Below are positions 1 through 26,861 of a stretch of 64,000 nucleotides of DNA, piece by piece; the first letter of the stretch is position 1; each line of letters starts with the position of its first letter. The stretch comes from Subdoligranulum variabile (GTDB taxonomy: Bacteria; Bacillota; Clostridia; Oscillospirales; Ruminococcaceae). The notes under the pieces were generated by a model. That model ran no database searches and had not been told where the DNA came from. It worked only from the letters and a program-made list of their open reading frames with translations. A program made the position numbers and the translations under genes. The DNA lies in NCBI GenBank assembly GCA_004552305.1, contig SFOX01000008.1, forward strand, positions 8-64,007, written 5' to 3'.

Positions 1-95
1 GCAACGGGCGGCATTTATGCCGCCCCTACGAACCAACCCGTTTTTTTCGCGTTTCGGTTAGGTCGCGGGCGGGGCATGCCCCGCCCCTACCGTGC
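1..95. repeat. REP-like hairpin cluster (2 units)
   Basis: gggcggcatttatgccgccc followed by ctac, and ggggcggggcatgccccgcccc followed by ctac. Same unit families as the other intergenic clusters. Confidence 0.8.
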
Positions 96-103
96 CGCAG
101 CAC

Positions 104-2158
104 TTATTCCAGCTCAAAATCGCCGGGCAGCAGCAGCTCCAGGCTGGCGGCGGGGTCGGCGATCAGGCGGCGGGATTGGTTCAAAATCGCCTTTTCCAAG
201 GCGTTGCGCGCCATACGTCCGTTGCCGTTGGTGGCGGCGTCCTCGGCTTGGCGGCGGTCAAACCATTCGGTCAGCGGCTGCTCGCAGCTTTCGTCCAGCC
301 GGTAGCCCTTGCTTTTGGCGATGGAAAGCAAAATTTTGTACAGCTCCGCGCCCGTGTAATCGGGGAATTCGATCTGGTTCGGGAAGCGGCTGGCAAGCCC
401 GGAGTTCGCGCTCAAAAACAGCTGCATCTCCTTGGTGTAGCCCGCCAGAATCACCACCAGATCGTTGTGATGATCCTCAATGCCCTTGACCAGCGTGTCG
501 ATGGCCTCCAAGCCGAAGCTGTCCTCGCCGCCGCGGTACAGGCTGTAGGCTTCGTCAATAAACAGCACGCCGCCCAAGGCGCTTTGAATCACCGTGTTGG
601 TCAACGGCGCGGTATGCCCGACATAGCGCCCCACCAAGTCGGCGCGGGTCACCTCGACCAGCTGCCCGCCCCGCAAAGCGCCAATGGCTTTGAGGTACTT
701 GGACAAAATGCGGGCGATCGTCGTCTTGCCGGTGCCGGGGTTGCCGGTAAAGATCATATGCATATTGATGTCGGCAACCTTAAGCCCCTCTGCCTTGCGG
801 CGCTGCTGCGCCTGCACGTTTTTGGCGATATCACGCACATAATCCTTAATTTCGGTAAGCCCGACGATCTCGTCCAGCTCTGCCTCCACGGCATCGACAT
901 CCCCGCGGTACTGCTGCGGCAAAAGCGCCAGCAGATCCAGCGGTGCCGCGCCGTCCACCGCCATCAGCAGGCGGTCGTTTTCCACACACAGGGCAGCGGG
1001 GGTTCCGGCGGCGGGGGCGATGTCAGCGTCTAACACATACTCGGCAATGGCGCGGTAAATCGTGTCGCAGTAGTCGCGCATCGCCTGCATACCGCGGGTC
1101 TTGCCGTACTGCGCGGCGACAAGGTCGCGCACGGCGGCGTCCATACCCAAGGTCAGCCCGCATTGGCGGCGCACCCGCTGCGCCAGCTCGTTCAGCTCGC
1201 GTGCGGCGATGGCTGCCAGCGACTCCGGGGTGAAGGCTTCGGTGCGGCAGATATCCCCGCAGACGGCGTCCACAAAGCGGGCACCGAAGGTTTCTGCCAG
1301 CGCCGCCTCGCCCTTGCGGGAGAAAAACACAAAATATTTGCCGCCCGCCTTCAGCTCGCCGATGGCACCGGGTGCCAGCGCCGTGCCGACATCCACCAGA
1401 ATGCCGCGCTGCAAGACGTACCGGCTGGACAGCGCCAGTGTGCCGTCCATCGCCAAGGTCGCCAGCATATTCAGATAACCGGGGGCGCAGCCCTCGTAAT
1501 TTTCAAAGGCAAGGACCTCCGCGTCCGATTGCAGCGCGGCGTACAGGTCCTGCAAAAACAGCTTTTCCTGCGCGGGTCCCGGGTACAGGGCAAGGTCCAG
1601 CGTTTCCACCAGCTCGCTGTGCAAAATGCCGCGCCCTGCCAGCTCGCGCACGGTGCAGTCCAGCGCGTAGTGCCGCCCGGTGCCTGCCGCGCCGCACAGC
1701 ACCAGAATGTTGCGCGCCCTGTCGGTGTCGGCGGCGGTACCCAGCACAAAGGGGCGGCGGAACGCCTTGACCAAGGCGGACACAAAGGCGTCCTGCCCCA
1801 GCACCTGCGCACGGATTTTTTCCGCTACACCGGTAAAATCGGCGTGTTCCGGCACGGCGGGCGCAGGGGTAGGGGCGGCGGTCTTGCCGCCCAGCAGACC
1901 GTCCTGCTTCAGGCTGCGGGCTAAATCGCTGCTCATCTTGCGCACGCTGTCGGCGGTGGCAGCGCCCGCCTTTTGCACGGCATCCACGGCACCGGCGGCG
2001 GATTTCTGGCGGCGGTTTGCCTGCTGCAGCGCTTCCAGCTGCGCCTGCATCTGCTGCACGGCGTCCCCGGCCTGGGCGGTCTGCTCGGGCGTGGCGGCAT
2101 ATTTGCCGCCGCCCATCAAGCCGCGCACCCAAGCATCGTATTGATCTTCCAGACCCAT
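104..2158 (-). CDS. AAA+ ATPase, SpoVK/CbxX-like C-terminal module with a degenerate N-terminal P-loop domain
   Basis: 684 aa. Walker A GNPGTGKTT, Walker B VLFIDEAY, SpoVK/CbxX-type tail. N-terminal half has CGAAGTGRH. The ATG lies 3 nt after the upstream stop. Confidence 0.85.
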   Translation of the reverse strand: MGLEDQYDAWVRGLMGGGKYAATPEQTAQAGDAVQQMQAQLEALQQANRRQKSAAGAVDAVQKAGAATADSVRKMSSDLARSLKQDGLLGGKTAAPTPAPAVPEHADFTGVAEKIRAQVLGQDAFVSALVKAFRRPFVLGTAADTDRARNILVLCGAAGTGRHYALDCTVRELAGRGILHSELVETLDLALYPGPAQEKLFLQDLYAALQSDAEVLAFENYEGCAPGYLNMLATLAMDGTLALSSRYVLQRGILVDVGTALAPGAIGELKAGGKYFVFFSRKGEAALAETFGARFVDAVCGDICRTEAFTPESLAAIAARELNELAQRVRRQCGLTLGMDAAVRDLVAAQYGKTRGMQAMRDYCDTIYRAIAEYVLDADIAPAAGTPAALCVENDRLLMAVDGAAPLDLLALLPQQYRGDVDAVEAELDEIVGLTEIKDYVRDIAKNVQAQQRRKAEGLKVADINMHMIFTGNPGTGKTTIARILSKYLKAIGALRGGQLVEVTRADLVGRYVGHTAPLTNTVIQSALGGVLFIDEAYSLYRGGEDSFGLEAIDTLVKGIEDHHNDLVVILAGYTKEMQLFLSANSGLASRFPNQIEFPDYTGAELYKILLSIAKSKGYRLDESCEQPLTEWFDRRQAEDAATNGNGRMARNALEKAILNQSRRLIADPAASLELLLPGDFELE

Positions 2159-2161
2159 GGC

Positions 2162-3292
2162 TTATGCCTCACTTTCTTTGCGGGGAAGTTTGACGGTATA
2201 AAAGTCCTTGACCGAGCATCCGGCGCGCCCGCCACCCGCACAGGCGCAGGCACACGCACAGCTGGATGCACAGGCACACGCGCAGGAGGAGGCACAGCCG
2301 CCCCCGCTGCTGTGGCGTCCCACACCGCCGCCTCGGCTGTGTCCGCCGCCGGCTTTAAAGCCCTTGGGCGGGTCGGTGCGGTGGTAGCCGCTGGGGGGCG
2401 GGGCTGTGCGCAGACGGCGCACGGTGTGGATACCGTTGGTGTACCAGTACCAGTCGTCGGGGTCGATGTCGTCGCCAAAGCCGACGCTCCAGCGGGGAGG
2501 AATGCTCAGCGCAATAACAATAACGATCAGCAATAAAATCAGAAAGGTAACGCCGATCACCTCATCCATAGAGGTGTCTTGGTCGTTGTCGTCCCATGTC
2601 AGCGCATCGTCGGGGCTGTAGGCGGCGTCGGGGTCAAAGCTCTCGGTCACCGGCATGGTGACGTGGACCTCCCCGCCCTGACCGTGTCCCAGCGGACCGT
2701 ACTCCCACAGGAGGTAGTCGCCGTCGGTCGCCATATTGTCGGCGGTGCAGCCGTCGGTCCTACGCCAGCGCACCTCCATCTTTTCCACGCTCAGCTCGTC
2801 AAACCAGCCGGGGGTAAAGGCAAAGTCGGCGGTGCTGTCGGTATTTAAGCGGAACAGGTGGCTCTGATGTACCGAAAACGCAAAATGTACCCGGCTTTCG
2901 GCACCGATCTCGGCGGCGATGTCGGGGGCGTAGTAAGGCTCGGCAAAGGTGATCTTGGCGTAGCTGCCGCCGTTGCCGCTGTACTCGATGTCGGAGATGG
3001 TGTCGGTCAGGGCGGTCAGCTCGTCGGCGTAGGCGTTGGCAAGACCGATTTTGACCCAGGACAGGTAGTCGTCGCGCCCGCCGTCAATGACCTGCCAGTC
3101 GATCTCGTAGGTGATATCGGCAGAGCCGTCCTCCCGCGGGTCCACGGTGACGCGGTAGTAGGGGATGTAGTCCATATCGCCGCTTTCGGCATAAGGGGCA
3201 AGGTCGCCGGCAAAGGCGGCAAGGCAGAGCAGGCACGCCAGCGCACCGACCAGCAAAAACGCGGAAATTTTGCGTACAAGTGTTGTTTTCAT
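2162..3292 (-). CDS. DUF2207-like membrane protein with a C-terminal Gly-rich and (Cys-Ala)n tail
   Basis: 376 aa. N-terminal signal/TM (FLLVGALACLLCLAAFAG), beta-rich ectodomain (YRVTVDPREDGSADITYEIDW), one TM (VIGVTFLILLLIVIVIALSI), tail GGGCASSCACACASSCACACACAGGGRAGC. Its ATG overlaps the upstream stop (TGATG). Confidence 0.7.
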   Translation of the reverse strand: MKTTLVRKISAFLLVGALACLLCLAAFAGDLAPYAESGDMDYIPYYRVTVDPREDGSADITYEIDWQVIDGGRDDYLSWVKIGLANAYADELTALTDTISDIEYSGNGGSYAKITFAEPYYAPDIAAEIGAESRVHFAFSVHQSHLFRLNTDSTADFAFTPGWFDELSVEKMEVRWRRTDGCTADNMATDGDYLLWEYGPLGHGQGGEVHVTMPVTESFDPDAAYSPDDALTWDDNDQDTSMDEVIGVTFLILLLIVIVIALSIPPRWSVGFGDDIDPDDWYWYTNGIHTVRRLRTAPPPSGYHRTDPPKGFKAGGGHSRGGGVGRHSSGGGCASSCACACASSCACACACAGGGRAGCSVKDFYTVKLPRKESEA

Positions 3293-4677
3293 CAGCAGCC
3301 CTCCTGCAGCGGGGTGTCACCCAGCTGGCACTGGCGTTTCATACGGGCACTTTCCTCGCGCACGGTGCGGCAGGATGCGCTGTCCCAGATGCGCTGCCAC
3401 GGCTCGTGCAGGATGTTGCCCAGCCCCTGCCCCGAAAGCCAGCTCTGGCAGGGCAGCACGGTGCCGTCGGGGGCAATGGCCATATTGGACAGGCACGCCC
3501 CACAGCTGGGAATTTGCGTAAAGCCCAGCGCGGTCAGCGTGTCCTCGCTCAGCCAGCCGGGGCTGGTAAAGTTGATCTCCAACCCGTGTTCGGCGGCAAA
3601 CGCCATGGCAGGACGCAGCGCCTCGGTCAGCTCGGCGGGGGTCAGGCGCACGGCGCGGCTTTCGTCCCCGGCGGCGTTGCCGGTGGGGATCAGCCCGCTG
3701 CAGGTCAGGTACCGCACGCCCATGCTGTGGGCAAATTGCACGGTGGCAAGATAATTTTGGTTTAAGCTGCAAAGCGGGGTGTTGATGCTGACGCTCAGCC
3801 CCGCGTCCAAGGCGTTGCGGATGCCGCCCACGGTGTCGGTAAAGCCGTTGGCGCCCACAAGCTGGTTGTGGGTAGCTTCGTCGGCGGAATACAGGGTGAT
3901 CTGCACAGCGTCCAGGCTGGCATCGTGCAGGTCGCGGCAGAGCGCGCTGGTCAGCATACGTCCGTTGGTGTTCAGGCGGGTCACAAACCACTGCGCCGCC
4001 TGCACCAGCTTGACAAGGTCACTGCGCAGGGTCGGCTCGCCGCCGGTAAAGGTCAGCTGCGGAATGCCCGCGTTGCGGCATTTTTCAATGACCGCCAGCC
4101 ACTGGTCGGTGTCCAGCTCCGGCACCTCGGCAAGGGGCTGGCAGGCGGCGTAGCAGTGCAGGCATTTTTGGTTGCAGTGCCACGCGCCGTCCTTGGTCAT
4201 GGCGCTGATCATCAGATCCATGCGGTGGGGCGCTGCCATGCGGGCGGCGTAGTCGCCAAGGCGCATCGGCTGCACCGACACCGGCGGGGTCTTGCCCTGC
4301 GCGATGGCAAGCAGGCAGTCCAGCAGCACCTGCAGGTCGGATTCGATCTGCACGGACGGCGTGCGGCGGTAAATTTTGTGCGCAGCGGCGACAGCCTGCG
4401 CCTGTACGGCATCCCAGTCGGCAGGGGAAAGTTCCTTGCCGGCAAAGGGCTGCAGGGCGTCCATCAGGCAGGCAAGCAGGATCGCCCAGCTGATTTGCAG
4501 CGGCAGGATATCCTGCCCGTTCAGAATGGCAACAAAGGGGGTGGTGCGGTCGGGCTTGCGGCACGGCACCAGATGGATGCGCACCGCGCCGGGACCGTTG
4601 GGGTCCAGCGTGATATGCCGCACGCGGTTCAGGTGGTTGTATACATAAGCGCGCTCAGCAAGGCTGAGAAATTTCAT
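3292..4677 (-). CDS. Radical SAM enzyme with a SPASM-like C-terminal Cys cluster and a ~150-aa N-terminal extension
   Basis: 461 aa. CNQKCLHC (CX3CX2C), GGEPTL, C-terminal CGACLSNMAIAPDGTVLPCQS. RBS GGAGAGGA upstream. Confidence 0.85.
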   Translation of the reverse strand: MKFLSLAERAYVYNHLNRVRHITLDPNGPGAVRIHLVPCRKPDRTTPFVAILNGQDILPLQISWAILLACLMDALQPFAGKELSPADWDAVQAQAVAAAHKIYRRTPSVQIESDLQVLLDCLLAIAQGKTPPVSVQPMRLGDYAARMAAPHRMDLMISAMTKDGAWHCNQKCLHCYAACQPLAEVPELDTDQWLAVIEKCRNAGIPQLTFTGGEPTLRSDLVKLVQAAQWFVTRLNTNGRMLTSALCRDLHDASLDAVQITLYSADEATHNQLVGANGFTDTVGGIRNALDAGLSVSINTPLCSLNQNYLATVQFAHSMGVRYLTCSGLIPTGNAAGDESRAVRLTPAELTEALRPAMAFAAEHGLEINFTSPGWLSEDTLTALGFTQIPSCGACLSNMAIAPDGTVLPCQSWLSGQGLGNILHEPWQRIWDSASCRTVREESARMKRQCQLGDTPLQEGC

Positions 4678-4714
4678 AAAAATTCGTCCTCTCCGGCGGG
4701 ATTTATATGGAAAA

Positions 4715-4743
4715 AGTATACCATAGCCGGGAGAAAATTACAA
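4715..4743 (-). promoter_or_regulatory. Sigma-A-type promoter of the rSAM operon
   Basis: Minus strand TTGTAA-N17-TATACT with TGg extended -10, about 35 nt upstream of the rSAM ATG. Confidence 0.55.
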
Positions 4744-4744
4744 T

Positions 4745-5015
4745 GCAGTCGGGGCGGAAAGTTTGGGGGAGAATTGCCCCGCCCGCGGCTTTACGGAAAT
4801 TACAATATTGCGGGGAATCCGCCGGTATGGCTTCCCCCTTTTGGGGGAAGCTGTCACCGCAAGTGACGGATGAGGGAGCAACTGCCAAACATTTCCCCCT
4901 CATCCGGCGCGTTCCGCGCCACCTTCCCCCCAAGGGGAAGGCTTTCCCGCGGCATAACGGCAATTGCAATCCTACAACCAAGGGAACAATGGCAATACAC
5001 CCAAACACCGCCCTA
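4745..5015. repeat. REP-like cluster including one five-hairpin element copy (4829-4941)
   Basis: Consecutive GC hairpins (cttccccc/gggggaag, gtcac/gtgac, gatgaggg/ccctcatc, ggcgcg/cgcgcc) matching the copies at 17870 and 40629 in reverse orientation. Confidence 0.8.
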
Positions 5016-5086
5016 TAATAAAAAATGTGCCCGCACAGCGGGCACACCCTATCTAAACTCTAAACTCTGCACGCTCAACTCTAAGC
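5016..5086 (-). repeat. Heptad-repeat + terminator-hairpin module (M1), downstream of the ABC ATPase gene
   Basis: Minus strand reads ttagagtt gagcgtg cagagtt tagagtt tagatag ggtgtgcccgc-tgt-gcgggcac attttttatt. Confidence 0.8.
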
Positions 5087-5094
5087 GCAGCGCA

Positions 5095-5827
<733 letters not shown>

Positions 5828-5841
<14 letters not shown>

Positions 5842-6520
5842 GGTTCAGCCCCCTCTCCAAACGCTTTGCCAGACGCGACAGCAGCGTAATGACGATCAAA
5901 TACATCACACCTACGATAAACCAGACCTCCAACGCGCGCATGACGTTGGCGTTGACGTTCTTGGCGGTGTTGACAAGCTCAGGAAAACCGATGACCGACA
6001 AAATCGAGGTATCCTTCAGCGTGATGATAAACTGGTTGATGATGGAGGGGATCATTGTGCGGATCGCCTGCGGCAGCACGACCTTGGACATCGCCTTCCA
6101 GTACGGCAGACCCAGACTGCGGGCGGCTTCCATCTGACCCTTGTCAACGCTCTCGATACCGGCGCGGATGATTTCCGCCATGTATGCGCCGCAGTTCAGC
6201 GACAGGCAGATGATGCCCGCCTGCAGCGCCGTGAACATAAACTTGCTGCCGAACAGTTCAGACCAGTGCAGCGTGTCGTTCATCAGCATCGGCACACCGA
6301 AAAACACAAAAAACGCCAGCACGATCATCGGCACACCGCGGATGATGTCAACGAAAATCGTGGCAATCGCGTTGCAGATGCGGTTTTTCAGTACGCTTAA
6401 AATGCCCACAAACAGACCGATCAGGCAGGCAAAAAACAGGCTCCACAGCGCCAGCAGCAGCGTCTGCCCCATGGCGACCAGCAGCATGGTGCCGTACTCG
6501 GCAAGGATCTTAAAAACCAA
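5828..6520 (-). CDS. Amino acid ABC transporter permease
   Basis: 230 aa polytopic membrane protein of the HisM/GlnP type. Putative TTG start 9 nt after AAGGAG; the start is uncertain. Confidence 0.88.
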
Positions 6521-6603
6521 GGCGAAGGACTCCTTTCGGGTTTGGTTGTTGCGAAAAAAGCGGGGATGCCTGCGAAAACAGGCGTCCCCGCGCTGTATAA
6601 TAA

Positions 6604-7440
6604 TTAGCCCAAATACTTTTTCAGGATCTCGTCATACTTGCCGTTGGCTTTGATGTTGGCAAGACCCTTGTTGAACATATCCAGCAGCTCCTGGCTGTCC
6701 TCGCTGAAAATGGCGAAGCCGTAGGGGGCGGGGTCGCTGGCGGTGTCGTCCAGCACCTTCAGGGCGAGGTCGCCGTCCTTGATGGACGCCTTCATGATGG
6801 GGGTGTCCTCAAAGCAGCCGACGCACTGACCGCCCAAAACTGCCTGATACATCGTGGGGGAATCCTCAAAGTAGGTCAGGTCAAAGCCGTACTCATCCTT
6901 GAGGCTCTCAGCGTAAGTGGCGCCCTGCGTGCCGGTCTTGACGGCAACCATCTTGCCGGACAGATCGGCAAAGCCGGTGATGTCGGAATCGACGGGGACA
7001 GTCAGCGTCTGGTTGGAGTCATAGTAGCCGTCGCTGAAGGTCCAGCCGCTGGCCTTGCGCTTTTCGGTGATGGAGGCACCGGCGATCATACCGTCCGCCT
7101 GACCGGACTGGCAGGCGGCGATGGCGGCATCCCAGCCCAAGGATTTCAGCTCGTACTTAAAGCCCTGATCCTCGGCAATGGCGGCGACGATATCCACGTC
7201 GATGCCCACAAAGTTGCCGGATGCGTCGGTGTACTCAAACGGCTTAAAGACGGTGTCGGTGGCGATGACCCAAGTCTTGTCGGCAGCGGTGGAGTCCGCG
7301 GCGCTCTCGCTGGCGGATGCGCTCTCGGCAGGGGCTGCGCTTTCGGCAGCGGAGGAGGACGCGGTGGAGGCAGCACCGCCGCAGGCGACCAGATAGGCAG
7401 CCAGGACGGAGGTCAGACCCAAAGCAATGAGTTTTTTCAT
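6604..7440 (-). CDS. Amino acid ABC transporter substrate-binding lipoprotein
   Basis: 278 aa. Lipobox LVAC, Ser/Ala-rich linker, type-3 SBP fold motifs (KPFEY, GIDVDI). Confidence 0.9.
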   Translation of the reverse strand: MKKLIALGLTSVLAAYLVACGGAASTASSSAAESAAPAESASASESAADSTAADKTWVIATDTVFKPFEYTDASGNFVGIDVDIVAAIAEDQGFKYELKSLGWDAAIAACQSGQADGMIAGASITEKRKASGWTFSDGYYDSNQTLTVPVDSDITGFADLSGKMVAVKTGTQGATYAESLKDEYGFDLTYFEDSPTMYQAVLGGQCVGCFEDTPIMKASIKDGDLALKVLDDTASDPAPYGFAIFSEDSQELLDMFNKGLANIKANGKYDEILKKYLG

Positions 7441-7559
7441 GTGTAATACCTTCCCTCAAAAACAAAATGATACCGCACCCGCCGCACAGCGGGCGTGATG
7501 CCTTGCGCGGACCCTCTGTTTGACCGCGCCGGGCGTACACGATTTGCAGGTACAGTTTT

Positions 7560-7587
7560 ATTATAGCACGGTCGTTTCAAAAGTCAA
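7560..7587 (-). promoter_or_regulatory. Promoter of the amino acid ABC operon
   Basis: Minus strand TTGACT-N16-TATAAT with TGc extended -10. Leaves a ~110-nt leader. Confidence 0.5.
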
Positions 7588-7794
7588 GAAAAATTCCGGC
7601 TTTTTGATTAATAAAATAAAGTTTTGCGCTGTATTTTAAAATAAAGATTAGTTTATTCTTGCTTTTTCGCGCGGCACTTAACTAAAACAAGCGGCAAACA
7701 TGCATGCGGAAAATGTGGTTTACCCGCCCGTTTTCGGCATTTCCAGCAGGGAAAGCCCCGTATAATAGGTCGTGTGATATCTTGAGAAGGAGCG

Positions 7795-8451
7795 ATGGAA
7801 ATGCTGCAAACCTTAGAACGAAAGACCCATATTTTTGACGCACAGGTGCTGACCGCAGCGCAGTACGATGCCCTGCGCGAGCTGGCAGATCCCGCCGGGC
7901 TGCCCATGCTGGACGCACTGCGCCCCGCCTTGGACAACGGGCAGATCGTGGGCGATTTTGCCGGGCAGGAGCAATTGCAGATCGCCGCGGCACTGCTGCC
8001 GCTGTACGCACAGGACGAGCTGCCCACCCGCCTGCGTGCCGCCGGCTTTGGTGCCGACGGGCAGGGCGCGGTGCTGACCCCGCCGCTGGTACGCGCAAAT
8101 TATACACAGCTGCGCAACTTTTTGCGGCTATCGCTGCGCTGGGCGATCGAGCGGTACGCCAGCTACCACGTTTGGGCGGTGCAGGTGCTGGATTTTAAAA
8201 ACCTGCCTGCCTGCGAGGATCTGTGTGCGCAGTACTTATCCACGGGGCTGACGCTGCGCGCCGTGCTGCCACTGCAGGACACCGACGGGCTGGTGGTTTA
8301 CGCCGCGCGGGGGTTGGCGCATTGGCGCGAGCCGCTGCGCCGCCTGCACCTGAACGACCCCGCCCTGCCCCGCGTGCTGGAGCGCGGCTACGCGGCGGCG
8401 GATTTCGGCTGGAGCAACGAGGGGATGGAGCTGTTGGTAAGACCGCTTTGA
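7795..8451 (+). CDS. Hypothetical protein
   Basis: 218-aa ORF with RBS GAAGGAG and GC3-rich codons. I recognise no family motif. Confidence 0.65.
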   Translation: MEMLQTLERKTHIFDAQVLTAAQYDALRELADPAGLPMLDALRPALDNGQIVGDFAGQEQLQIAAALLPLYAQDELPTRLRAAGFGADGQGAVLTPPLVRANYTQLRNFLRLSLRWAIERYASYHVWAVQVLDFKNLPACEDLCAQYLSTGLTLRAVLPLQDTDGLVVYAARGLAHWREPLRRLHLNDPALPRVLERGYAAADFGWSNEGMELLVRPL

Positions 8452-8454
8452 TGC

Positions 8455-8519
8455 AAGAGTTAAGAGTGGAGAGTTTAGAGTTAAGATAAGGTGTGCCCGC
8501 CCCGCGGGCACATTTTTTA
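8455..8519 (+). repeat. Heptad-repeat + terminator-hairpin module (M2)
   Basis: AAGAGTT AAGAGTG GAGAGTT TAGAGTT AAGATAA GG TGTGCCCGC-cccg-CGGGCACA TTTTTT. Starts 4 nt after the stop codon. Confidence 0.85.
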
Positions 8520-8985
8520 TTGTGGGGGCGGTGGTTGGGGGGTGTTGCCATTGTTCCCTTGGCTGTAGGGGCGAGCATTGCTCGCCTATGCGGTTTGTCC
8601 GTTAAATCGTATTGTTGGGATGGCTGCAACGGGCGGCATATATGCCGCCCCTACAGATGACCCGTTATGTTGTTATAACCGCAAAACCGCGGGCGGGGCA
8701 ATGCCCCGCCCCTGCCGCGCAACATATTTTATTGCCCCGTAGGGCGGGGTGACCCCACCCCGCCGGGGGAATTGGTGGTAGCCGAAAGGCGGCAAGGAGG
8801 GGTCAAGACCCCTCCCTACAAATTGCCGGAAGGTGAGCGGTTATAAGGCAAAACGCCCATTTTCGGCAGGTTTGTAGGGGACGCATATATGCGTCCCGTG
8901 CGGTTTGCCCGGTAGTTTGATTTGCCGGGATGGCTGCAACGGGCGGTATATATGCCGCCCCTACGAACCGCCCTGCGATGGGGCA
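8520..8985. repeat. REP/BIME-like cluster (at least 7 GTAG-flanked hairpins in both orientations)
   Basis: Units gtaggggcgagcattgctcgcc, gggcggcatatatgccgcccctac, ggcggggcaatgccccgcccc, gtagggcggggtgaccccaccccgcc, ggaggggtcaagacccctccctac, gtaggggacgcatatatgcgtccc. Confidence 0.85.
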
Positions 8986-8993
8986 AAATCACA

Positions 8994-9027
8994 GCAAAAA
9001 AAGGAAGGAGGCAAGCCTCCTTCCTTT
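8994..9027 (-). terminator. Intrinsic terminator after the 150-aa gene (bidirectional shape)
   Basis: aaggaaggagg-caag-cctccttcctt, with a T7 run on the minus strand. Confidence 0.75.
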
Positions 9028-9054
9028 TATAGTATAGTATACTATCCCATGCCG

Positions 9055-9507
9055 TTATTTGCCGAAAATTGCCCCGATGCTGTTGAATACCCCGGCGATG
9101 CTGTCGGCTTGCTTTTGCAGCGCGTCCACGTTTTCCATCAAGCCGGGCAGACCTGCCAGCACTTTATTCAGCGCTTCCACGTCTAATTTTTGCAGCTGAT
9201 CCACAATGCCGGGCAGCTTTTGCATCATATCGTCCAGCTCGGCGGGATCCAGCGTGCCAAGGCTGCTTTGCAGGGTTTCCGCCAGCGCGTCCACCTGCGT
9301 GCAGGCGTCCAGCACCTCGGCGTAGGCGGCGTTCAGGCGCACGGCGGCAAACGCCAGCGCTGCCAGCACCACCACGGCCAGCACAATCGTGACCGCCATA
9401 TGGATCGTCTGGTTGCGCAAAATTTTTTGGTTCTGCGCCTCGATGCGGTCCAGCTGCGCCTGCAGCGCCGTTTCGGGTGCGTCGGGGGTGTGGTTCAGTT
9501 CTTGCAT
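9055..9507 (-). CDS. Hypothetical single-pass membrane/coiled-coil protein, co-operonic with the HK/RR pair
   Basis: 150 aa. One TM (MAVTIVLAVVVLAALAFAAV). RBS AAAGGAGGAG. Starts 12 nt after the HK stop. Confidence 0.7.
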   Translation of the reverse strand: MQELNHTPDAPETALQAQLDRIEAQNQKILRNQTIHMAVTIVLAVVVLAALAFAAVRLNAAYAEVLDACTQVDALAETLQSSLGTLDPAELDDMMQKLPGIVDQLQKLDVEALNKVLAGLPGLMENVDALQKQADSIAGVFNSIGAIFGK

Positions 9508-9518
9508 AGGCTCCTCCT

Positions 9519-11051
9519 TTACTGGGTGCGGGTGTCCCGCATTTCAAACCAGAATGTGCTGCCCTGCCCCACAGCGCTGTTTACGCCAAAGGCAAAGCCG
9601 TGCTGCTGCAAAATCGCCTTGGTAATGCTCAGCCCCAGCCCCGTGCCGCTGCGCCCGGAATCCTGCCGTGCGCGGTAGTAGCGGTCAAAAATGTACGGCA
9701 GATCGTCCGGCGGGATGCCGGGACCGTGGTCGGTGACCTCCACCCGGCAGCCGCCGCCGGGCATGGGCGCGGCGCGCAGAATCACCACGCCGTCCGCGCC
9801 GATGTGGTGGAACGCATTGCCCAAAAGGTTGTGCAGCACCCGCTCCATCATGGCGGGGTCAGCGCTGACCGGGCAGGGGTCGTCGCCCAAAAATTGCAGC
9901 TGCCAGTGGTTTTGCTCGCACAGGGCATCGTAGCGCCCCGCCACCTCAAAGCAAAGCGCATCCATATGAAACTGCACCGGCTCGGGCTTTTCGGCGCCCG
10001 ACTGTACCTTGCTCAGCTCCATCACGCTGTTGACCAGCGCCGACAGGCGGTCGGCTTCATCGGCAATGATGTTGCACTGCTCGGTGCGCTTTTCGGCGTC
10101 GTTGCCCGTGATATCGCGCACCGTTTCGGCGTAGCCCTTGATCAGCGTCAGCGGGGTGCGCAGGTCGTGGCTGACGTTTGCCAGGATGTCCTTTTCCAGC
10201 TGGGCGCTGCGCTTGACCTCGGCGGTCATATGGTTAAAATCGGCGGCAAGACGTCCGATTTCATCGTTATGCTCCACCGAAATGCAGGTGTCGTAGTTGC
10301 CGGCAGCGACCTCTCGCGCGGCGGCGGACAGGCGGTGGATGGGGCGGGTGATCCAGCGGCTGAACAGCATCGCCGCCAGCAGGTCAATGACCAGCAAAAC
10401 CAGCGAAAGCGGCAACAGCAGGCTGCGCAGCACCTCGGCGGCGGTGAAGATCTGCGCCAGATTCGCCGAAACCAGCACGCCGTAGCAGCCGTCCGCCGAC
10501 AGCCTGCCCACGACCATCTGCCGGTTGCTGCCGGTCGCGATAATTTTGTACAGGCTGCCCTGCTCAAACAGTTGCTGCCGCAGCGAGATGACCACCGGGT
10601 TGTCGGGCGTGAAGGCAAACTCGCCGCCGAACGCGCCGGAGCTGTCGTGCAGCAGGCAGGGGAACAGGCTTTCGTATGCCTTGAGGCAGTGCAGGGTCGC
10701 ATCGCTGAAATCCACGCAGGCGCCGTCCACATCAATGCGCTGCTGGGCAAAGGCGTCGCTGACGCTGTTCCAGAAATTGCTGTTGAGCCAAAGCCCCGTG
10801 TAGGTGCGTTGCGAGATTTCCTTGTCGCTTTGGTCGATCATGGCGGTGATGGCGGTGCAGCGGTTTTCCAGCCGGGCGCGCAGCGTGCGGTTGTACATCG
10901 GTTCCAGCCCGTAGGTGATGACCGCCCACATCAGCGCCAGCGTAAACAACGTTAAGGCGCTGATAAACAGCATCATCTGCCAGCGTATCGCCAGCGCGGG
11001 GCGTTTGTGTGCAGGGTGTTTCACGGCAGCGGCACTTCCTTTACCGGGCAT
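9519..11051 (-). CDS. Sensor histidine kinase
   Basis: 510 aa. Two TMs, HAMP, H-box SHDLRTPL, G-box GTGLGLSI. Confidence 0.92.
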   Translation of the reverse strand: MPGKGSAAAVKHPAHKRPALAIRWQMMLFISALTLFTLALMWAVITYGLEPMYNRTLRARLENRCTAITAMIDQSDKEISQRTYTGLWLNSNFWNSVSDAFAQQRIDVDGACVDFSDATLHCLKAYESLFPCLLHDSSGAFGGEFAFTPDNPVVISLRQQLFEQGSLYKIIATGSNRQMVVGRLSADGCYGVLVSANLAQIFTAAEVLRSLLLPLSLVLLVIDLLAAMLFSRWITRPIHRLSAAAREVAAGNYDTCISVEHNDEIGRLAADFNHMTAEVKRSAQLEKDILANVSHDLRTPLTLIKGYAETVRDITGNDAEKRTEQCNIIADEADRLSALVNSVMELSKVQSGAEKPEPVQFHMDALCFEVAGRYDALCEQNHWQLQFLGDDPCPVSADPAMMERVLHNLLGNAFHHIGADGVVILRAAPMPGGGCRVEVTDHGPGIPPDDLPYIFDRYYRARQDSGRSGTGLGLSITKAILQQHGFAFGVNSAVGQGSTFWFEMRDTRTQ

Positions 11052-11724
11052 CGGGGTCGAACTTGTAGCCGATGCCCCACACGGTTACGATCAGATTGCG
11101 GCAAGCCCCCAAGTGGCTGCGCAGCATTTTAATGTGGGTGTCCACGGTGCGGTCCTCGCCGTAGTAGTCGTAGTTCCACACCTTTTGCAGGATTTTTTCG
11201 CGGCTGAGGGCAATGCCCTTGTTGTTGACCAAAAAGACCAGCAGGTCAAATTCCTTGGGGGTCAGCGGGGCTTCCTGCCCGGCGACCTTGACGCTGTGGC
11301 TGGCGGTGTCGATGGTCAGCTCCCCAAAGGTGTACAGCGTGCCGTCGCGGGCGGTGCTGGGCATGGTGCGCGCCAGCACCGCCTTGACCCGTGCCACCAG
11401 CTCGCGCGGGGAAAACGGCTTGACAACGTAGTCGTCGGCACCGTTTTCCAGCCCCGCCAGCTTGTCGTATTCCTCGCTGCGGGCGGTCAGCATAATGACC
11501 GGGGTCATCATTTTGCGGGTGCGCATCTCGCGCAGGCAGGTCATACCGTCCATAAAGGGCATCATAATGTCCAGAATCACAAGGTCAATGCCGCCCTGCG
11601 CCAATAGGCCCAGGGCTTCGCCGCCGTCGCCCGCCTCGGCGCAGGTAAAGCCGGCGTATTGCAGATGCTCCCGGATCAAATCCCGGATGCGGGGTTCATC
11701 GTCCACGATCAGAATGTTCGGCAT
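11041..11724 (-). CDS. OmpR-family response regulator
   Basis: 227 aa. Receiver domain (ILIVDDE, DLVILDIMMP) plus winged helix (TVWGIGYKF). Overlaps the HK by 11 nt. Confidence 0.93.
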   Translation of the reverse strand: MPNILIVDDEPRIRDLIREHLQYAGFTCAEAGDGGEALGLLAQGGIDLVILDIMMPFMDGMTCLREMRTRKMMTPVIMLTARSEEYDKLAGLENGADDYVVKPFSPRELVARVKAVLARTMPSTARDGTLYTFGELTIDTASHSVKVAGQEAPLTPKEFDLLVFLVNNKGIALSREKILQKVWNYDYYGEDRTVDTHIKMLRSHLGACRNLIVTVWGIGYKFDPDAR

Positions 11725-11817
11725 GGGGAAACTCCTCCTTATACGATACCTCTATAAGTCTATCATACCGCAGCTGCGTGGTGAAATTGTGAAATTTTTT
11801 GAAAAAAATTGAAAAAA

Positions 11818-11872
11818 GGGGCGCGGCACAGAGTTGAGAGCGGAAAGTTCAGAGTTGAGATTCGCCGCGCCA
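11818..11872 (+). repeat. Permuted heptad module (M3): hairpin arms flank the heptads
   Basis: ggggcgcggcac AGAGTTG AGAGCGG AAAGTTC AGAGTTG AGATTC gccgcgcc. Confidence 0.6.
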
Positions 11873-11944
11873 ATTTCCATTATCTCTTGCATTTCTCCCC
11901 GTTTTGCTGTACTATTATGCTGAGAAAATCTGGAGGTGCAGCTT

Positions 11945-12766
11945 ATGCAGGATATCCGCGTCGTGGCGCTGGATCTGGACGGTACCGTGTTTGACGATGC
12001 CAAAACCATTTCCCCGCGCAATGCCGCTGCCATCAATGCCGCCCTGCAAAAGGGCGTGCTGGTCTTACCCGCAACGGGGCGTCCCGCCGCCGGGGTGCCG
12101 CAGCAGTTTCTGGACTGGCCGGGTGTAGACTACGCCATTACCAGCAACGGTGCCACCGTCACCGAGCTGGCAACCGGCAAAAAACTTGTCGAACAGCCGT
12201 TTTCCCCCGCCTTGGCGATGCAGCTGTATGACCTTTTGCAGCCCTTCGGCGGGCTGATCAGCGTGTTTGTGGACGGGCAAAGCTACTCGCAAACGGGCAA
12301 CGTGGATGCCTGCGAGGCTTTTTTGCCCCCCAACCTGAGAGCCTACTTCCACACGACCCGGGGCGAAGCCGCCGACCTGCGGCAGTTTCTGCGGGATCAC
12401 GCGCAGGAAATTGAAAAATTCAGCATCATCTATCCCGACGATGCCACCCGCGACGCCGCATGGCAGGCGGTGCTGGCTGCCGGTCCCACCGAGATCACCA
12501 CCAGCCTCGATTCCAACCTGGAGATCAACGCCCCCGGCGTGACCAAGGGCAGTGCGCTGCTGGCGCTCGCCAAGCATCTGGGGCTTGCCCGCAGCCAGCT
12601 GATGGCGATGGGCGATTCCGGCAACGACCTTGCCATGCTGCAGGCCGCCGGGCTGGGTGTCGCCATGGGCAACGCCACCGAGGAGGTCAAGGCAGCCGCC
12701 GACGCCGTAAGCGCCGACAACAACCACGACGGTGTGGCAGTTGCCATTGAAAAATACGTTCTGTAA
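11945..12766 (+). CDS. Cof-type HAD-IIB family hydrolase
   Basis: ALDLDGTVF and GDSGNDLAML motifs. ATG 8 nt after TGGAGG; the ORF track starts 9 nt earlier at a GTG. Confidence 0.88.
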   Translation: MQDIRVVALDLDGTVFDDAKTISPRNAAAINAALQKGVLVLPATGRPAAGVPQQFLDWPGVDYAITSNGATVTELATGKKLVEQPFSPALAMQLYDLLQPFGGLISVFVDGQSYSQTGNVDACEAFLPPNLRAYFHTTRGEAADLRQFLRDHAQEIEKFSIIYPDDATRDAAWQAVLAAGPTEITTSLDSNLEINAPGVTKGSALLALAKHLGLARSQLMAMGDSGNDLAMLQAAGLGVAMGNATEEVKAAADAVSADNNHDGVAVAIEKYVL

Positions 12767-12799
12767 AGCACAATTTGCGATTATACAAGGAGTAATTTC

Positions 12800-14020
12800 A
12801 TGAAAAACGTTCTGGTAGGTCAGTCCGGCGGTCCCACCGCTGTGATCAACGCAAGCCTCGCCGGTGTGTACGAAACCGCTAAGGCGTGCGGCGCCTCCCG
12901 CGTGTACGGTATGCAGTACGGCATTGAGGGCGTGCTGAAGGGGCATCTCATCGACTTGGACGAAAAGCTCGCTGACAAGATGGATATCGAGCTGCTCAAG
13001 CGCACCCCGTCCAGCTACCTCGGCTCCTGCCGCTGCAAGCTGCCCGACCCCAAGGTGAACGCCGCCCCGTTTGAAAAGCTGTTCCAGATTTTTGCCGCGC
13101 ACGACATCGGCGCGGTGTTCTACATCGGCGGCAACGACTCGATGGACACCATCGCCAAGCTGTCGGTGTACGGCGGCAGTATCGGCAGCGGCATCCGGTT
13201 TATCGGCGTACCCAAAACCATCGACAACGACCTGATGCTGACCGACCACACCCCCGGCTACGGCAGCGCCGCCAAGTACATTGCCACCATTTTAAAGGAA
13301 GTCATCTGCGATTCCAGCGTGTACGACCTGCGCAGCGTCACGGTGGCGGAAATCATGGGTCGCCACACCGGCTGGCTTGCCGCCGCCGCCAGCTTGGCTG
13401 CCGGTCCCGACTGCGACGGTCCCGACCTGATCCTGCTGCCGGAGGTTCCCTTTGACGAGGACGCCTTCCTTGCCCGCGTTGCCGAGCTGGCGCAGACCCG
13501 CCACAACGTTATCATTGCCGCCAGCGAGGGCGTCAAAAACAAGGACGGCGTGTTCCTGTGCGATCTGGTTTCCACCGCCGGGCAGCTGGACGCCTTCGGT
13601 CACAAGGCAATTTTGAGCGGCACCAGCCGTTACCTCGCCGATCTCATCCGCGTGCGCCTGGGCTGCAAGACCCGCGCCATTGAATTTTCGACGCTGCAGC
13701 GCTGCGCCAGCCACCTTGCCAGCCGCACCGACATCACCGAGGCGTATCAGGTGGGCGGCGGCGCTGTGGAGGCTGCCGTGCGCGGCGAAACCGGCAAGAT
13801 GTGCGCCATCAAGCGCCTGAGCGACCAGCCCTACCGCGTGGAAACCGAGATGGTCGATGTGACGCAGGTCGCCAACTACGAAAAGAAGGTCCCCGCCGAT
13901 TGGATCGCCGAGGACGGTATGCACGTCAACGAAAACTTTGAGCGCTACGCCCGCCCGCTGATCCAAGCTGAGCTGAACCCCATCTACATCAACGGCGTAC
14001 CCCGCCACATCCACCTGTGA
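12800..14020 (+). CDS. Phosphofructokinase, PPi-dependent signature (diphosphate-fructose-6-phosphate 1-phosphotransferase type)
   Basis: 406 aa. GQSGGPTAVINAS, GGNDS (Asp at the E. coli G104 position), PKTIDND (Lys at the G124 position). Confidence 0.88.
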   Translation: MKNVLVGQSGGPTAVINASLAGVYETAKACGASRVYGMQYGIEGVLKGHLIDLDEKLADKMDIELLKRTPSSYLGSCRCKLPDPKVNAAPFEKLFQIFAAHDIGAVFYIGGNDSMDTIAKLSVYGGSIGSGIRFIGVPKTIDNDLMLTDHTPGYGSAAKYIATILKEVICDSSVYDLRSVTVAEIMGRHTGWLAAAASLAAGPDCDGPDLILLPEVPFDEDAFLARVAELAQTRHNVIIAASEGVKNKDGVFLCDLVSTAGQLDAFGHKAILSGTSRYLADLIRVRLGCKTRAIEFSTLQRCASHLASRTDITEAYQVGGGAVEAAVRGETGKMCAIKRLSDQPYRVETEMVDVTQVANYEKKVPADWIAEDGMHVNENFERYARPLIQAELNPIYINGVPRHIHL

Positions 14021-15148: not shown

Positions 15149-15150
15149 TT

Positions 15151-15204
15151 GCGGCTGTTGCAAAACTCCCCGGCGGGGTGGGGTCACCCCGCCCTACATC
15201 GTAC
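15151..15204. repeat. REP-like unit (ggcggggtggggtcaccccgcc followed by ctac)
   Basis: Same family as 8739, 18075, 40815, 45686, 57341 and 63520. Confidence 0.75.
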
Positions 15205-15265
15205 TAAATAAAACCGTGCCGCTTAGCGGCACACCTTATCTTAACTCTCAACGCTCCACTCTCCC
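15205..15265 (-). repeat. Heptad-repeat + hairpin module (M4), antisense to the flanking genes
   Basis: Minus strand reads gagagtg gagcgtt gagagtt aagataa ggtgtgccgc-taa-gcggcac ggttttattt. Confidence 0.8.
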
Positions 15266-15277
15266 TGAGGTATTTCT

Positions 15278-17740: not shown

Positions 17741-17757
17741 GCGCAAAACATAAGCGC

Positions 17758-17793
17758 AAAAGGCGCGCCCCGGCAGGGGCGCGCCTTTTGCTT
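17758..17793 (+). terminator. Intrinsic terminator
   Basis: aggcgcgcccc-ggca-ggggcgcgcct followed by tttgcttt. Confidence 0.75.
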
Positions 17794-17856
17794 TAGAGTT
17801 AAGAGTGGAGAGTGCAGAGTTCAGATAAGGTGTGTCCGCTTTGCGGACACGTTTTA
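17794..17856 (+). repeat. Heptad-repeat + hairpin module (M5)
   Basis: TAGAGTT AAGAGTG GAGAGTG CAGAGTT CAGATAA GG TGTGTCCGC-ttt-GCGGACAC GTTTT. Confidence 0.85.
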
Positions 17857-17869
17857 ATATATTGCAAAG

Positions 17870-17982
17870 CCTTCCCCCAGCGGGGGAAGGTGGCGCGCCT
17901 GCGCGCCGGATGAGGGGGAGATGTCCGGCAGTTGCCCCCTCATCAGTCACCTGCGGTGACAGCTTCCCCCAAAGGGGGAAGC
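17870..17982 (+). repeat. Five-hairpin ~113-nt element, full copy
   Basis: ccttccccc-agc-gggggaagg / ggcgcg-cctg-cgcgcc / gatgaggggg-N16-ccccctcatc / gtcacc-tgc-ggtgac / gcttccccc-aaa-gggggaagc. Confidence 0.8.
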
Positions 17983-17984
17983 CA

Positions 17985-18105
17985 TACACGCGGATTACCC
18001 GTTATGTTGTTACAACCGTAAAACCGCGGGCGGGGCTTGCCCCGCCCCTACCGCGCAACATATTGTATTGCCCCGTAGGGCGGGGTGACCCCACCCCGCC
18101 GTAAG
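17985..18105. repeat. REP-like cluster (2 units)
   Basis: gggcggggcttgccccgcccctac and gtagggcggggtgaccccaccccgcc. Confidence 0.8.
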
Positions 18106-26824: not shown

Positions 26825-26861
26825 ATCTCTGTGTTTTTGCGCATTTGAGGGAGGTATATTT

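Follow-up and report, generated by a model that had tools for sequence, protein, structure and literature searches.

A dispersed heptad-array and hairpin repeat at gene boundaries in a Gemmiger lineage, and its probable co-option as an intrinsic terminator

A 64,000-nt stretch of Subdoligranulum variabile DNA (GenBank assembly GCA_004552305.1, contig SFOX01000008.1, positions 8 to 64,007 of the forward strand; hereafter the window, with position 1 at its first letter) carries eleven copies, M1 to M11, of a ~65-nt module in which a tandem array of 7-nt units (heptads) is joined to a GC-rich hairpin. The window is 60% GC with a GC3 near 80%. Its PolA belongs to the cluster "uncultured Gemmiger sp.", and the annotations of related proteins name Gemmiger, Subdoligranulum or Faecalibacterium. 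The spacers between its genes are mosaics of GTAG-type repetitive extragenic palindromes (REPs, often in inverted pairs), a second palindromic family and the heptad-hairpin module, the last at a density of about one per 6 kb. The modules sit at the gene-proximal edge of these REP-type mosaics, and every window copy is oriented with its heptads toward the nearest gene boundary and its hairpin toward the interior of the spacer. The genes beside the modules are unrelated in function; they encode ABC ATPases, a 218-aa protein of unknown function, a response regulator, HAD hydrolases, a Zn-ribbon protein, CTP synthase (pyrG), a PAP2 protein, a YfbR-like nucleotidase, Dus, PolA, TsaD, tRNAs, a GATase and an ECF S-component.

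The module in the window

The heptad pattern AGAGTNNAGAGTNNAGAT was scanned over the window with up to two mismatches, using dinucleotide shuffles as background. The 31 in-register matches all fall at the eleven module loci, with 0.03 expected; one stray match with two mismatches lies outside them (26757-26774, minus strand). A covariance model trained on ten of the copies (M3 excluded) and run on the window with filters off regained all ten and the untrained M3 as well. The remaining model matches are partial, hairpin-only hits to ordinary terminators, so the count of eleven is exact. The eleven copies are thereby confirmed (Table 1), as is the architecture that a preliminary description of this sequence had assigned to them: each hairpin of the GTGYCCGC type in the window bears heptads and each array is accompanied by a stem. 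The span formerly given for M7, 28862-28930, is corrected in the table.

The arrays have a near-fixed length of four AGAGTKN units and a terminal AGAT. Certain variants recur at certain positions, unit 2 often reading AAGAGTG and unit 3 GAGAGTT, so that the arrays resemble copies of a master sequence and not homogeneous products of slippage. The A-G at the second and third positions, originally called invariant, is near-invariant, with AGCGT units in M1, M4 and M6, AAAGT units in M3, M7 and M9, and one AGAGCG unit in M3. Each array is predicted to be unstructured and ends 4-8 nt before the stem without overlapping it. In M2, the copy singled out in the preliminary description, only the terminator hairpin is predicted to form. 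The stems are 8-9 bp long and GC-rich, with loops of 3-4 nt. A T-run, which had been attributed to all copies, is strong in M1, M2, M6, M7, M8, M10 and M11, which are seven of the ten canonical copies and have 5-7 T behind the stem. It is weak in M4 and M5 and weakest in M9 (GTTTAAAAA), where only GTTT precedes an A5 tract. M3 had been called permuted. It does have the heptads and a stem, but its five units lie within the loop of the GGCGCGGC/GCCGCGCC stem, and its region folds no better than shuffled sequence (z = 0.04).

Five copies follow a gene on its own strand closely. The distance from stop codon to first AGAGT is 12 nt for M1 (ABC-transporter ATPase gene, 5095-5841, minus strand), 4 nt for M2 (TGA of the 218-aa open reading frame, 7795-8451), 1 nt for M6 (pyrG) and 2 nt for M9 (polA), while the first heptad of M8 overlaps the TGA of the yfbR-like gene (-1 nt). 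These distances correct the range of 0-10 nt first proposed for the five. Further repeats adjoin M1 (4776-4947), the REP mosaic at 8556-8979 comes after M2, and 330 nt of other repeats separate M8 from the convergent dus stop. M4 is antisense to the neighboring plus-strand genes; its heptad end is 15 nt from the ATG of a HAD-family gene (15278), with a GAGG Shine-Dalgarno (SD) sequence between, and its hairpin side adjoins a REP (15149-15197). The heptads of M7 face the PAP2 gene, whose true start is at about 29156, with a TATAAT promoter between, and those of M11 face an ABC-ATPase gene starting at about 63697, with REPs (63334-63543) on the hairpin side. M3 lies in a divergent spacer between the response-regulator gene (11041-11724, minus strand) and a HAD hydrolase gene (11936-12766, plus strand). 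The M5 array directly follows the strong terminator (17756-17791) of the upstream Zn-ribbon gene. The M10 array abuts a separate bidirectional terminator (52196-52234), upstream of which are a further hairpin (52121-52153) and three tRNA genes (51843-52116); REPs at 52329-52494 come after it. A separate strong terminator precedes both M5 and M10, so neither copy is the first terminator behind the gene or tRNAs upstream. M6 as left arm and M7 as right arm make the only inward-facing pair in the window, around the REP cluster at 28573-28860.

The family and its paired form

The hairpin-free pattern AGAGTNNAGAGTNNAGATNNGGTG was scanned over 185,579 species genomes and gave at least 124 matches in at least 106 genome stretches. 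Among the matches listed, nearly all are in Oscillospiraceae/Ruminococcaceae; the genera and groups include Gemmiger spp., Ca. Faecalibacterium, Flavonifractor, Pseudoflavonifractor, Butyricicoccus, Acutalibacteraceae and Christensenellales, and a few matches are found elsewhere (Aquirufa, Endomicrobium, others). The counts that follow, on 196 arrays, ~150 copies and the array pairs, are likewise counts among the matches listed. A strong hairpin comes after 74% of the 196 arrays, compared with 12% of random positions. The modal array length is five units (103 of 196), and the 7-nt register is strict in all copies. From 150 model-aligned copies, the family consensus is NN-(AGAGTKN)x4-AGAT-W-N-GGTG-stem-TTT-N-AAA. 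The AGAGT core is nearly invariant at 1.4-2.0 bits per position and positions 6-7 are almost free; in the GGTG of the junction, each G/T position is kept in 136-147 of ~150 copies. Over 440 units, AG is preceded by A in 31%, G in 29%, T in 27.5% and C in 13%.

Compensatory differences between window stems had been taken as a sign of selection on the structure, and the family bears this out. In the 150 copies, aligned by fitting to a covariance model, which is how these pairing statistics are to be read, stem cells are paired at 95.6%, as against 69% in column shuffles and 32-49% in slid controls, and all nine stem pairs covary, with 276 double-sided changes where 77 +/- 10 are expected. Structural constraint on the stem is thus supported. 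The hairpin sequence is lineage-specific with pairing kept, and a single genome has a small set of recurring hairpin types. Behind the hairpin, 36 copies carry a T-run and 45 an A-run, and 103 carry neither.

In most genera the order is sense heptads, GGTG, hairpin A, a short A/T spacer, hairpin B, CACC and antisense heptads. At least 52 array pairs within 700 nt face inward and none faces outward. Their inner distances cluster near 55, 88 and 120 nt, the cores being 55-250 nt long with two hairpins; in tight pairs the two hairpins are 12-70 nt apart and differ in sequence. The module is one arm of a larger inverted-pair element found across Oscillospiraceae, the arms being mostly solo in the window lineage. 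A complete pair in a relative of ~96% nucleotide identity (L236; Table 1), absent from the orthologous place in the window, combines both hairpin types of the window, type b (GTGTCCGC) and type a (GTGCCCGC), one on each arm, so that the two types in the window would represent the two arms of one ancestral element. The outer arrays of this pair are degenerate AT-rich heptads (AATAGAT AAGAGAT AATAGAT ...) and not AGAGTKN.

A full element folds into a long regular helix, with 6 bp and a 1x1 mismatch per heptad (free energy -60 kcal/mol, z = -9.7). Selected pairing between the sense and antisense arrays was considered but is not supported, the seventh position pairing at the chance rate (60 of 148); pairing of array with array looks like a by-product.

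Full elements often fill the entire stop-to-SD spacer. An upstream stop codon is no more than 15 nt from the sense array in 47 of 71 stop-facing arrays, the enrichment after stop codons that had been anticipated, and in ~16 cases the stop lies within the first heptad (TAG followed by AGTT, or TAA or TGA followed by GAGTT). About half of all arms face gene starts and are antisense. Of 48 start-facing cases, 28 have the end of the antisense array 10-36 nt upstream of the ATG, with an A-rich stretch and the SD sequence directly after; in the other cases a TTGACA-TATAAT promoter lies between array and start.

Tandemly duplicated half-elements (hairpin and antisense array) are seen in two other genome stretches (L134, 4080-4400; L169, 3000-3180). 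Each includes the last ~14 nt of the upstream gene (GGAAAGCGGAATAA), which indicates local duplication as one probable route of copy multiplication.

Arrays of the AGAGTNN type (AGAGTGA, AGAGTTA, AGAGTTG and others) also occur in more than 120 IMG/VR contigs (viral loci L001-L120). There (for example L053, L105, L120 and L081) several arrays per contig are intergenic, often of mixed units and sometimes in inverted pairs, lack the AGAT..GGTG-hairpin junction, and have the stop of an open reading frame within 40 nt upstream in 41% of cases compared with 17% of controls. The junction pattern AGAGTNNAGAGTNNAGATNNGGTG had no match in 2.9 million viral contigs. A phage origin of the module was rejected, the heptad-only pattern being present in over 120 viral contigs but the full junction in none; the viral arrays are a separate phenomenon.

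Table 1. Positions of the modules and of neighboring repeats (window coordinates unless stated otherwise)
Feature	Position	Strand	Remarks
M1	5016-5084	-	type-a hairpin GTGTGCCCGC..GCGGGCACAC + T6; 87.6 bits
M2	8454-8522	+	copy of the preliminary description; 89.5 bits; among top terminator-like sites
M2 units	8456-8483	+	AGAGTTA AGAGTGG AGAGTTT AGAGTTA; terminal AGAT 8484-8487; junction AAGG 8488-8491
M2 hairpin	8492-8518	+	stem TGTGCCCGC 8492-8500, loop CCC 8501-8503, stem GCGGGCACA 8504-8512, T-run 8513-8518
M3 (variant)	11818-11872	+	units AGAGTTG AGAGCGG AAAGTTC AGAGTTG AGAT; 35.3 bits
M4 (four units)	15205-15268	-	hairpin GTGCCGC..GCGGCAC, weak T-run; 63.3 bits
M5	17793-17861	+	type-b hairpin GTGTGTCCGC..GCGGACACG, weak T-run; 87.9 bits
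M6	28481-28549	+	type-a hairpin + T7; 85.2 bits
M7	28873-28941	-	type-b hairpin + T5; 83.6 bits
M8	40545-40614	+	type-b hairpin + T5; 83.9 bits
M9	44525-44593	+	solo in polA-tsaD spacer; stem GCGCCGCC/GGCGGCGC; 80.9 bits
M10	52234-52302	+	stem ATGCCGCCC/GGGCGGCAT + T6; 72.7 bits
M11	63551-63619	-	type-b hairpin + T5; 91 bits
Complete pair in L236	16417-16623 (L236)		orthologous to window ~48420-48850; absent from window there
Main REP clusters	8556-8979, 28573-28860, 45686-45940, 48553-48830, 52329-52494, 57323-57613, 63334-63543
Further REP sites	15149-15197, 18046-18101, 40750-40846
GGCTTCCCC/GGGGGAAGC palindromic family	4776-4947, 17866-18036, 40624-40750, 40863-40942, 48455-48530; 7680-7810 of L227

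Gain and loss among relatives and comparison with known repeats

The preliminary description suspected a dispersed or mobile element, and filled and empty orthologous sites with a patchy distribution among close relatives now substantiate this. Presence/absence polymorphism is seen at polA-tsaD, at yfbR/dus, at M7 and at the complete pair of L236. The comparison rests on protein-anchored loci, which were hence not chosen by motif. The polA-tsaD spacer is 100 nt long with M9 in the window and in a 99% relative (L232). In a relative of 89% PolA identity (L233) it is only TGAaaaATG, a 3-nt spacer without M9; at 85% PolA identity (L235) it measures 18 nt, again without M9, and at 86% (L234) it holds 266 nt of REPs without heptads. 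The stop codons of yfbR and dus adjoin each other in L234 and are separated by 72 nt in L235 and by 395 nt in the window, where M8 and other repeats intervene. The YfbR C-terminus reads DELTKI* in the window, its TGA being formed at the array junction, and DELTRGRF* in the relatives. The PyrG tail (28460-28481) also differs from that of array-free relatives, as does that of YfbR (40530-40547). These altered ends suggest that gene 3' ends are rewritten by insertion or turnover of the element. After pyrG, two relatives of 95% PyrG identity and conserved synteny (L227/L228) have the same family hairpin and T-run without heptads and without M7, and more distant relatives have unrelated terminators. 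In ~87 kb of protein-anchored loci from the sister species no full-length copy was found by regular expression or covariance model, with ~15 expected at the window density. Thus copies have been gained and lost at gene boundaries between close relatives, and they sometimes rewrite the last codons and provide the stop codon.

Within the lineage, M8, M9 and M10 occupy orthologous sites in relatives of ~96% nucleotide identity (L236-L239). Between the window and L236 the arrays of M9 and M10 are 72% and 76% identical and their hairpins and tails 96-97%; M9 has 4+1 units in the window and 5+1 in L236. M11 is kept with one unit fewer in a related Gemmiger metagenome-assembled genome (L141). Array sequence changes more quickly than the remainder of the module. 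Behind M8, the window and L236 have wholly different REP mosaics. Outside the arrays, one flank is rich in T and the other in A, and several arrays (M5, M10 and a copy in L177) begin where the T-tract of another terminator ends. The composition of the flanks suggests that the element inserts at the T-tracts of terminators.

Larger changes are also seen at repeats. In L227 (95% PyrG identity), 1-5867 corresponds to window 57675-63334, inverted directly upstream of pyrG, and 5903-13541 corresponds to window 26764-34600; the breakpoints of this rearrangement coincide with repeat clusters. The contigs of the closest relatives (L232 and L233, 3.7-3.9 kb, and other short ones) end in or next to such clusters.

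The clusters of GTAG-type REPs (for example GTAGGGGCGGCATATATGCCGCCC and GTAGGGCGGGGTGACCCCACCCCGCC), often inverted pairs of REPIN-like form, are dense and fill the spacers of this Firmicute. Besides them, the second palindromic family has the form GGCTTCCCC-N4-GGGGGAAGC ... GTCACCGCAGGTGAC ... CTGATGAGGGGG-N-CCCCCTCATC. Its CTGATGAG was considered as hammerhead-like, but no Rfam ribozyme matched at E <= 5, and it is just an inverted repeat. A sub-threshold, palindromic match to the Thr operon leader model lies on both strands of 55508-55677 (36 and 31 bits against a gathering threshold of 55; E = 0.005 and 0.07), in the divergent spacer between genes at 54016-55389 (minus strand) and 55771-56292 (plus strand). 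It is probably a look-alike made by a hairpin and a T-run.

In Rfam 15 at the gathering threshold the window matches three tRNAs only, and none of the modules; at E <= 5 no match is attributable to the module, a chance-level mir-515 match (E ~0.5) merely grazing the start of M10. Nothing relevant was found in the literature on the module sequences or on repeats in Gemmiger, Faecalibacterium or Subdoligranulum. The statement that no element of this composition had been described is therefore upheld, and the module is compared below with known systems of similar anatomy.

SPRITE of S. pneumoniae is a dispersed terminator-like repeat found near the 3' ends of coding sequences, for which neither a target-site duplication (TSD) has been established nor a matching insertion sequence (IS) is known (PMC3049150). 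It consists of a stem and then a U-rich tract, is present in one species and nearly absent in its relatives, and has been proposed to be a co-opted terminator (PMC3049150). Like it, the module is a small Firmicute repeat, with a stem and T-run in the window, close to the 3' ends of coding sequences; this SPRITE-like combination is found in the window copies and not in all lineages. In contrast to the module, SPRITE is AT-rich (28% GC as against ~45%), with an 18-bp stem, a long U-tract and AAAA/TTTT termini (PMC3049150). Compared by composition and anatomy, it also lacks a heptad array, a conserved junction and a paired two-hairpin form.

The REPIN concept was reportedly introduced by Bertels and Rainey in 2011. 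REP and REPIN elements are mobilized by RAYT (Y1) transposases; among them, SMAG consists of GTAG and a palindrome (PMC3184786). The module shares with REPs and REPINs lineage-specific GC palindromes after a conserved tetranucleotide, inverted doublets with a short spacer, an intergenic location often behind genes, and the lack of a TSD. However, its tetranucleotide is GGTG and not GTAG, the paired hairpins differ, and each arm carries a 35-nt heptad array. The genuine GTAG REPs of the window are separate elements adjoining the modules, and no Y1 (RAYT) transposase was found among 20 window proteins scanned.

Among MITEs (miniature inverted-repeat transposable elements), the Correia element of Neisseria, RUP, ERIC and BOX were compared (PMC3184786). 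Like them the element is under 200 bp, non-coding and intergenic, with terminal inverted repeats, insertion polymorphism and a long hairpin if transcribed; BOX is likewise modular, with a tandemly repeated sub-unit. Unlike MITEs it showed no TSD, and no IS with matching ends was found at the loci examined; its inverted repeats are 7-bp periodic and imperfect at every seventh position, and solo arms predominate in the window.

Tandem heptamers are known as STRR from heterocystous cyanobacteria, where they were reportedly described by Mazel et al. in 1990. TAACTGA heptamers are found in intergenic regions of Beggiatoaceae, Cyanobacteria and Bacteroidetes (PMC4679880). The likeness to both lies in intergenic 7-nt tandem units, many of them a few nt before starts at the ribosome-binding site, and in a sporadic distribution; there is also some likeness of sequence, the reverse complement of TAACTGA being TCAGTTA and the module unit AGAGTTA. 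In TAACTGA and STRR arrays the units are homogeneous and number 2-43, and no hairpin or inverted-pair architecture is described, whereas the module units vary at two positions, number ~5 and are fused to a hairpin.

In B. subtilis, HutP reads NAG triplets spaced by 4 nt just upstream of a terminator stem and TRAP reads (G/U)AG repeats, and the preliminary description compared the heptads to the sites of such ring-shaped proteins. The module shares with HutP sites the 4-nt spacer between triplets (a 7-nt period), the place upstream of a terminator stem and a Firmicute host. It differs in not being UAG-specific, not lying in operon 5' leaders and having an array that does not overlap the stem. 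It differs from the sites of both proteins in being dispersed, polymorphic, half antisense and often without a T-run, and from TRAP sites, with 9-11 (G/U)AG triplets 2-3 nt apart, in having five units, a 7-nt period and a free first base.

At the DNA level, the omega protein of pSM19035 binds 7-10 contiguous 7-bp WATCACW repeats, one dimer per heptad, with at least four contiguous repeats needed (PMC9499535), and ParG of TP228 binds ACTC boxes in direct or inverted arrays (PMC3130281). The ParG box is the reverse complement of the GAGT in the module, and the modal five units in inverted pairs reach the four or more contiguous 7-bp repeats that omega needs. The omega and ParG sites are plasmid partition or operator sites beside their own par genes and the module has none adjacent; it also differs in having probably hundreds of chromosomal copies, another sequence and an attached hairpin. 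The module lacks defining features of each family tested, and it is therefore filed as a small non-autonomous dispersed repeat of no named family.

Function, rival explanations and significance

The modules have terminator-like properties. In a scan for consensus terminators, M1, M2 and M4 come out at the top. Between the stop codon and the module there is no other terminator at M1, M2, M6 and M8, so the module would be the terminator of those four genes. The preliminary description had cast the co-oriented copies as the 3' untranslated region (UTR) and terminator of the gene upstream, and the stop distances and the terminator scan agree with this. In the family, 19 of 24 strong T-runs belong to solo arms, of which 13 face stops and 6 face starts. 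Paired arms in stop-to-SD spacers have a weak T-run in 44 of 49 cases, and the weak T-run of M9 recurs in L236. M9 lies between polA and tsaD, genes that are separated by 3-18 nt in relatives and probably transcribed together.

We consider it the best explanation, with a probability of roughly 0.6, that the module is the arm of a non-autonomous dispersed repeat like SPRITE, REPIN or MITE that has been co-opted as a terminator, and not a gene-specific riboregulator. A small non-coding repeat would have proliferated in some Oscillospiraceae genomes, including this Gemmiger lineage. The complete element would consist of an outer array of ~5 units, the AGAT-WN-GGTG junction, a hairpin, an A/T spacer and a mirror image with a different hairpin; in the window lineage the arms would stand single or be split by later REP-type insertions, as M6...M7 may have been. 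With a hairpin and 5-7 T, each window arm would be a canonical intrinsic terminator reading away from the heptads, and an arm behind a gene that has no other terminator (M1, M2, M6, M8) would act as the terminator of that gene. The T-run would be weak where termination is harmful, as for M9 in polA-tsaD and for tight stop-to-SD pairs in other genera. A terminator strength tolerated or trimmed by context, as proposed for the pneumococcal SPRITE, would fit this pattern. The AGAGT core may be read unit by unit by a trans-acting mobilizing or binding protein, and probably not through base-pairing between the two arrays; both of these points are more tentative than the rest.

Several observations weigh against this explanation. 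The bias of solo arms toward stops is a trend only and is not significant (13:6, p = 0.17). In many lineages an A-run or only three T follow the hairpin, so termination would not be the universal role of the family, and other terminators precede M5 and M10. At the outer ends of 48 pairs, direct repeats of k >= 3 match no more often than expected from shuffles, and no TSD is visible on comparing the filled and empty sites of M8 and M9. At the loci examined there is no gene consistently enclosed by inward-facing ends and no autonomous copy, and no protein family recurs among 487 proteins near arrays (~100 independent loci); spread by recombination or gene conversion may therefore apply. The conservation of AGAGT and GGTG over family-level divergence appears to exceed what a selfish decaying repeat needs and hints at a recognition function.

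A strict 7-bp phase, an invariant AGAGT, two free positions and ~5 units would together be the signature of unit-wise protein recognition. Two other ideas for the heptads were rejected. As a three-frame stop cassette they perform poorly, only 25 of 110 five-unit arrays having stops in all frames compared with 52% in a composition-matched control. As promoters they have little to offer, since between 4500 and 18500 (M1-M5) only the M3 array overlaps a consensus sigma-70-like match.

If recognition takes place on DNA, the heptads would be cooperative duplex sites for a small dimeric protein (ribbon-helix-helix (RHH)-like, a nucleoid factor, or a transposase or recombinase) and the hairpin would be the cleavage or recognition hairpin of a REP/RAYT-like system. 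Five contiguous units in inverted pairs recall the omega and ParG sites, and the variable position is free of pairing constraint; the GGTG 5' of lineage-specific palindromes and the tight pairs recall GTAG with its REP and the inverted REP doublets (PMC3184786). However, the neighborhoods of the arrays yielded no RHH protein, Y1 transposase or recurrent gene, the sequence is unlike WATCACW or the 8-bp-spaced ACTC boxes, the tetranucleotide is not GTAG, and the two hairpins of a pair differ, unlike REPIN arms. A DNA-level array of this kind is unlikely.

Slightly less likely again is a broader proposal, in which the AGAGT array is a cooperative docking platform and a mobile element has spread hundreds of protein-addressable terminators and 5'-UTR leaders over the Oscillospiraceae. 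Candidates would be RHH- or transposase-like proteins on duplex DNA and cold-shock-domain or ring-type proteins on RNA. If true, this would amount to a transposon-borne, genome-wide layer of control over termination, read-through or translation, and could relate to the TAACTGA and STRR heptamers and to the AGAGTNN arrays of phage contigs.

A regulated terminator, the heptads being an RNA platform from which an oligomeric protein (HutP/TRAP-like, cold-shock-domain or Hfq-type) tunes read-through, we regard as distinctly improbable. Attenuation proteins of the HutP/TRAP kind are known in Firmicutes, the group of the host. The regular phase, the AGAGT core, the free positions 6-7 and the ~5 units would suit unit-wise recognition in RNA too, and so would an unstructured array ending 4-8 nt before the stem in an invariant array-then-hairpin order. 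A raw excess of sense-strand G.U pairs (29 versus 6) also seemed to favor it, but this count is confounded by pairing of GGTG with the T-run, and without such flank artefacts the core shows 8 versus 3 (p = 0.23). Moreover, the base before AG is not U/G-specific, the copies lie at the 3' ends or before the starts of unrelated housekeeping genes and not in regulon leaders, and roughly half of the arms would be transcribed in antisense only. M5 and M10 stand behind other terminators, many lineages have no T-run, and copies are gained or lost between ~96% identical genomes and were not found in the sister species. The ring-protein site first suggested for the heptads is thus not supported, given the free base before AG, the absence of a regulon, the antisense half and a T-run that is not conserved in the family; protein binding to the heptads, on RNA or DNA, is possible.

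Very unlikely is a functionless by-product, that is, heptanucleotide microsatellites made by slippage and expanding beside terminator hairpins. In many bacteria no long simple-sequence repeat is commoner than the heptanucleotide tandem repeat (PMC4679880), and unit number and order do change at ~96% genome identity while hairpins are still 96-100% identical. Yet the modal length is fixed at five, the units vary at positions 6-7 and are invariant at 1-5, AGAT-WN-GGTG is kept from family to family, orientation follows a strict rule (52:0 among the matches listed), and the hairpins of a genome fall into few repeated types, whereas ordinary terminators are unique.

Multi-copy small RNA genes or small RNAs derived from 3' UTRs, each module being a ~65-nt RNA with an AGAG-rich single-stranded seed, would have the usual anatomy (unstructured 5' region, terminator hairpin and U-tail) and would account for copies facing away from genes (M4, M7, M11) if these had promoters of their own, but are hardly credible given that no consensus promoter precedes the arrays in the region scanned (only the M3 array overlaps a promoter-like match), that arms in other genera are paired back-to-back without T-runs, that Rfam gives no match and that the presence/absence turnover is repeat-like.

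The repeat bears on how genomes of this group are read. The human gut has Gemmiger, Faecalibacterium and their relatives among its most abundant bacteria, and hardly any of their non-coding DNA has been characterized. The repeat family is undescribed, and an end made of a heptad array is an unusual anatomy for a bacterial dispersed repeat. The family reshapes gene ends by providing stop codons and altering C-termini, puts terminators into former operon junctions such as polA-tsaD, and lies at the borders of hypervariable REP mosaics, which are sites of rearrangement. Because the short contigs of relatives end near repeat clusters, the repeats probably help to fragment short-read metagenome assemblies of Gemmiger. 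The family should be annotated before operons, 3' UTRs or small RNAs are inferred in these organisms. Finally, the 35-nt array offers a tractable bait for a protein that recognizes it, and could illuminate the tandem heptamers of cyanobacteria and Beggiatoaceae as well.

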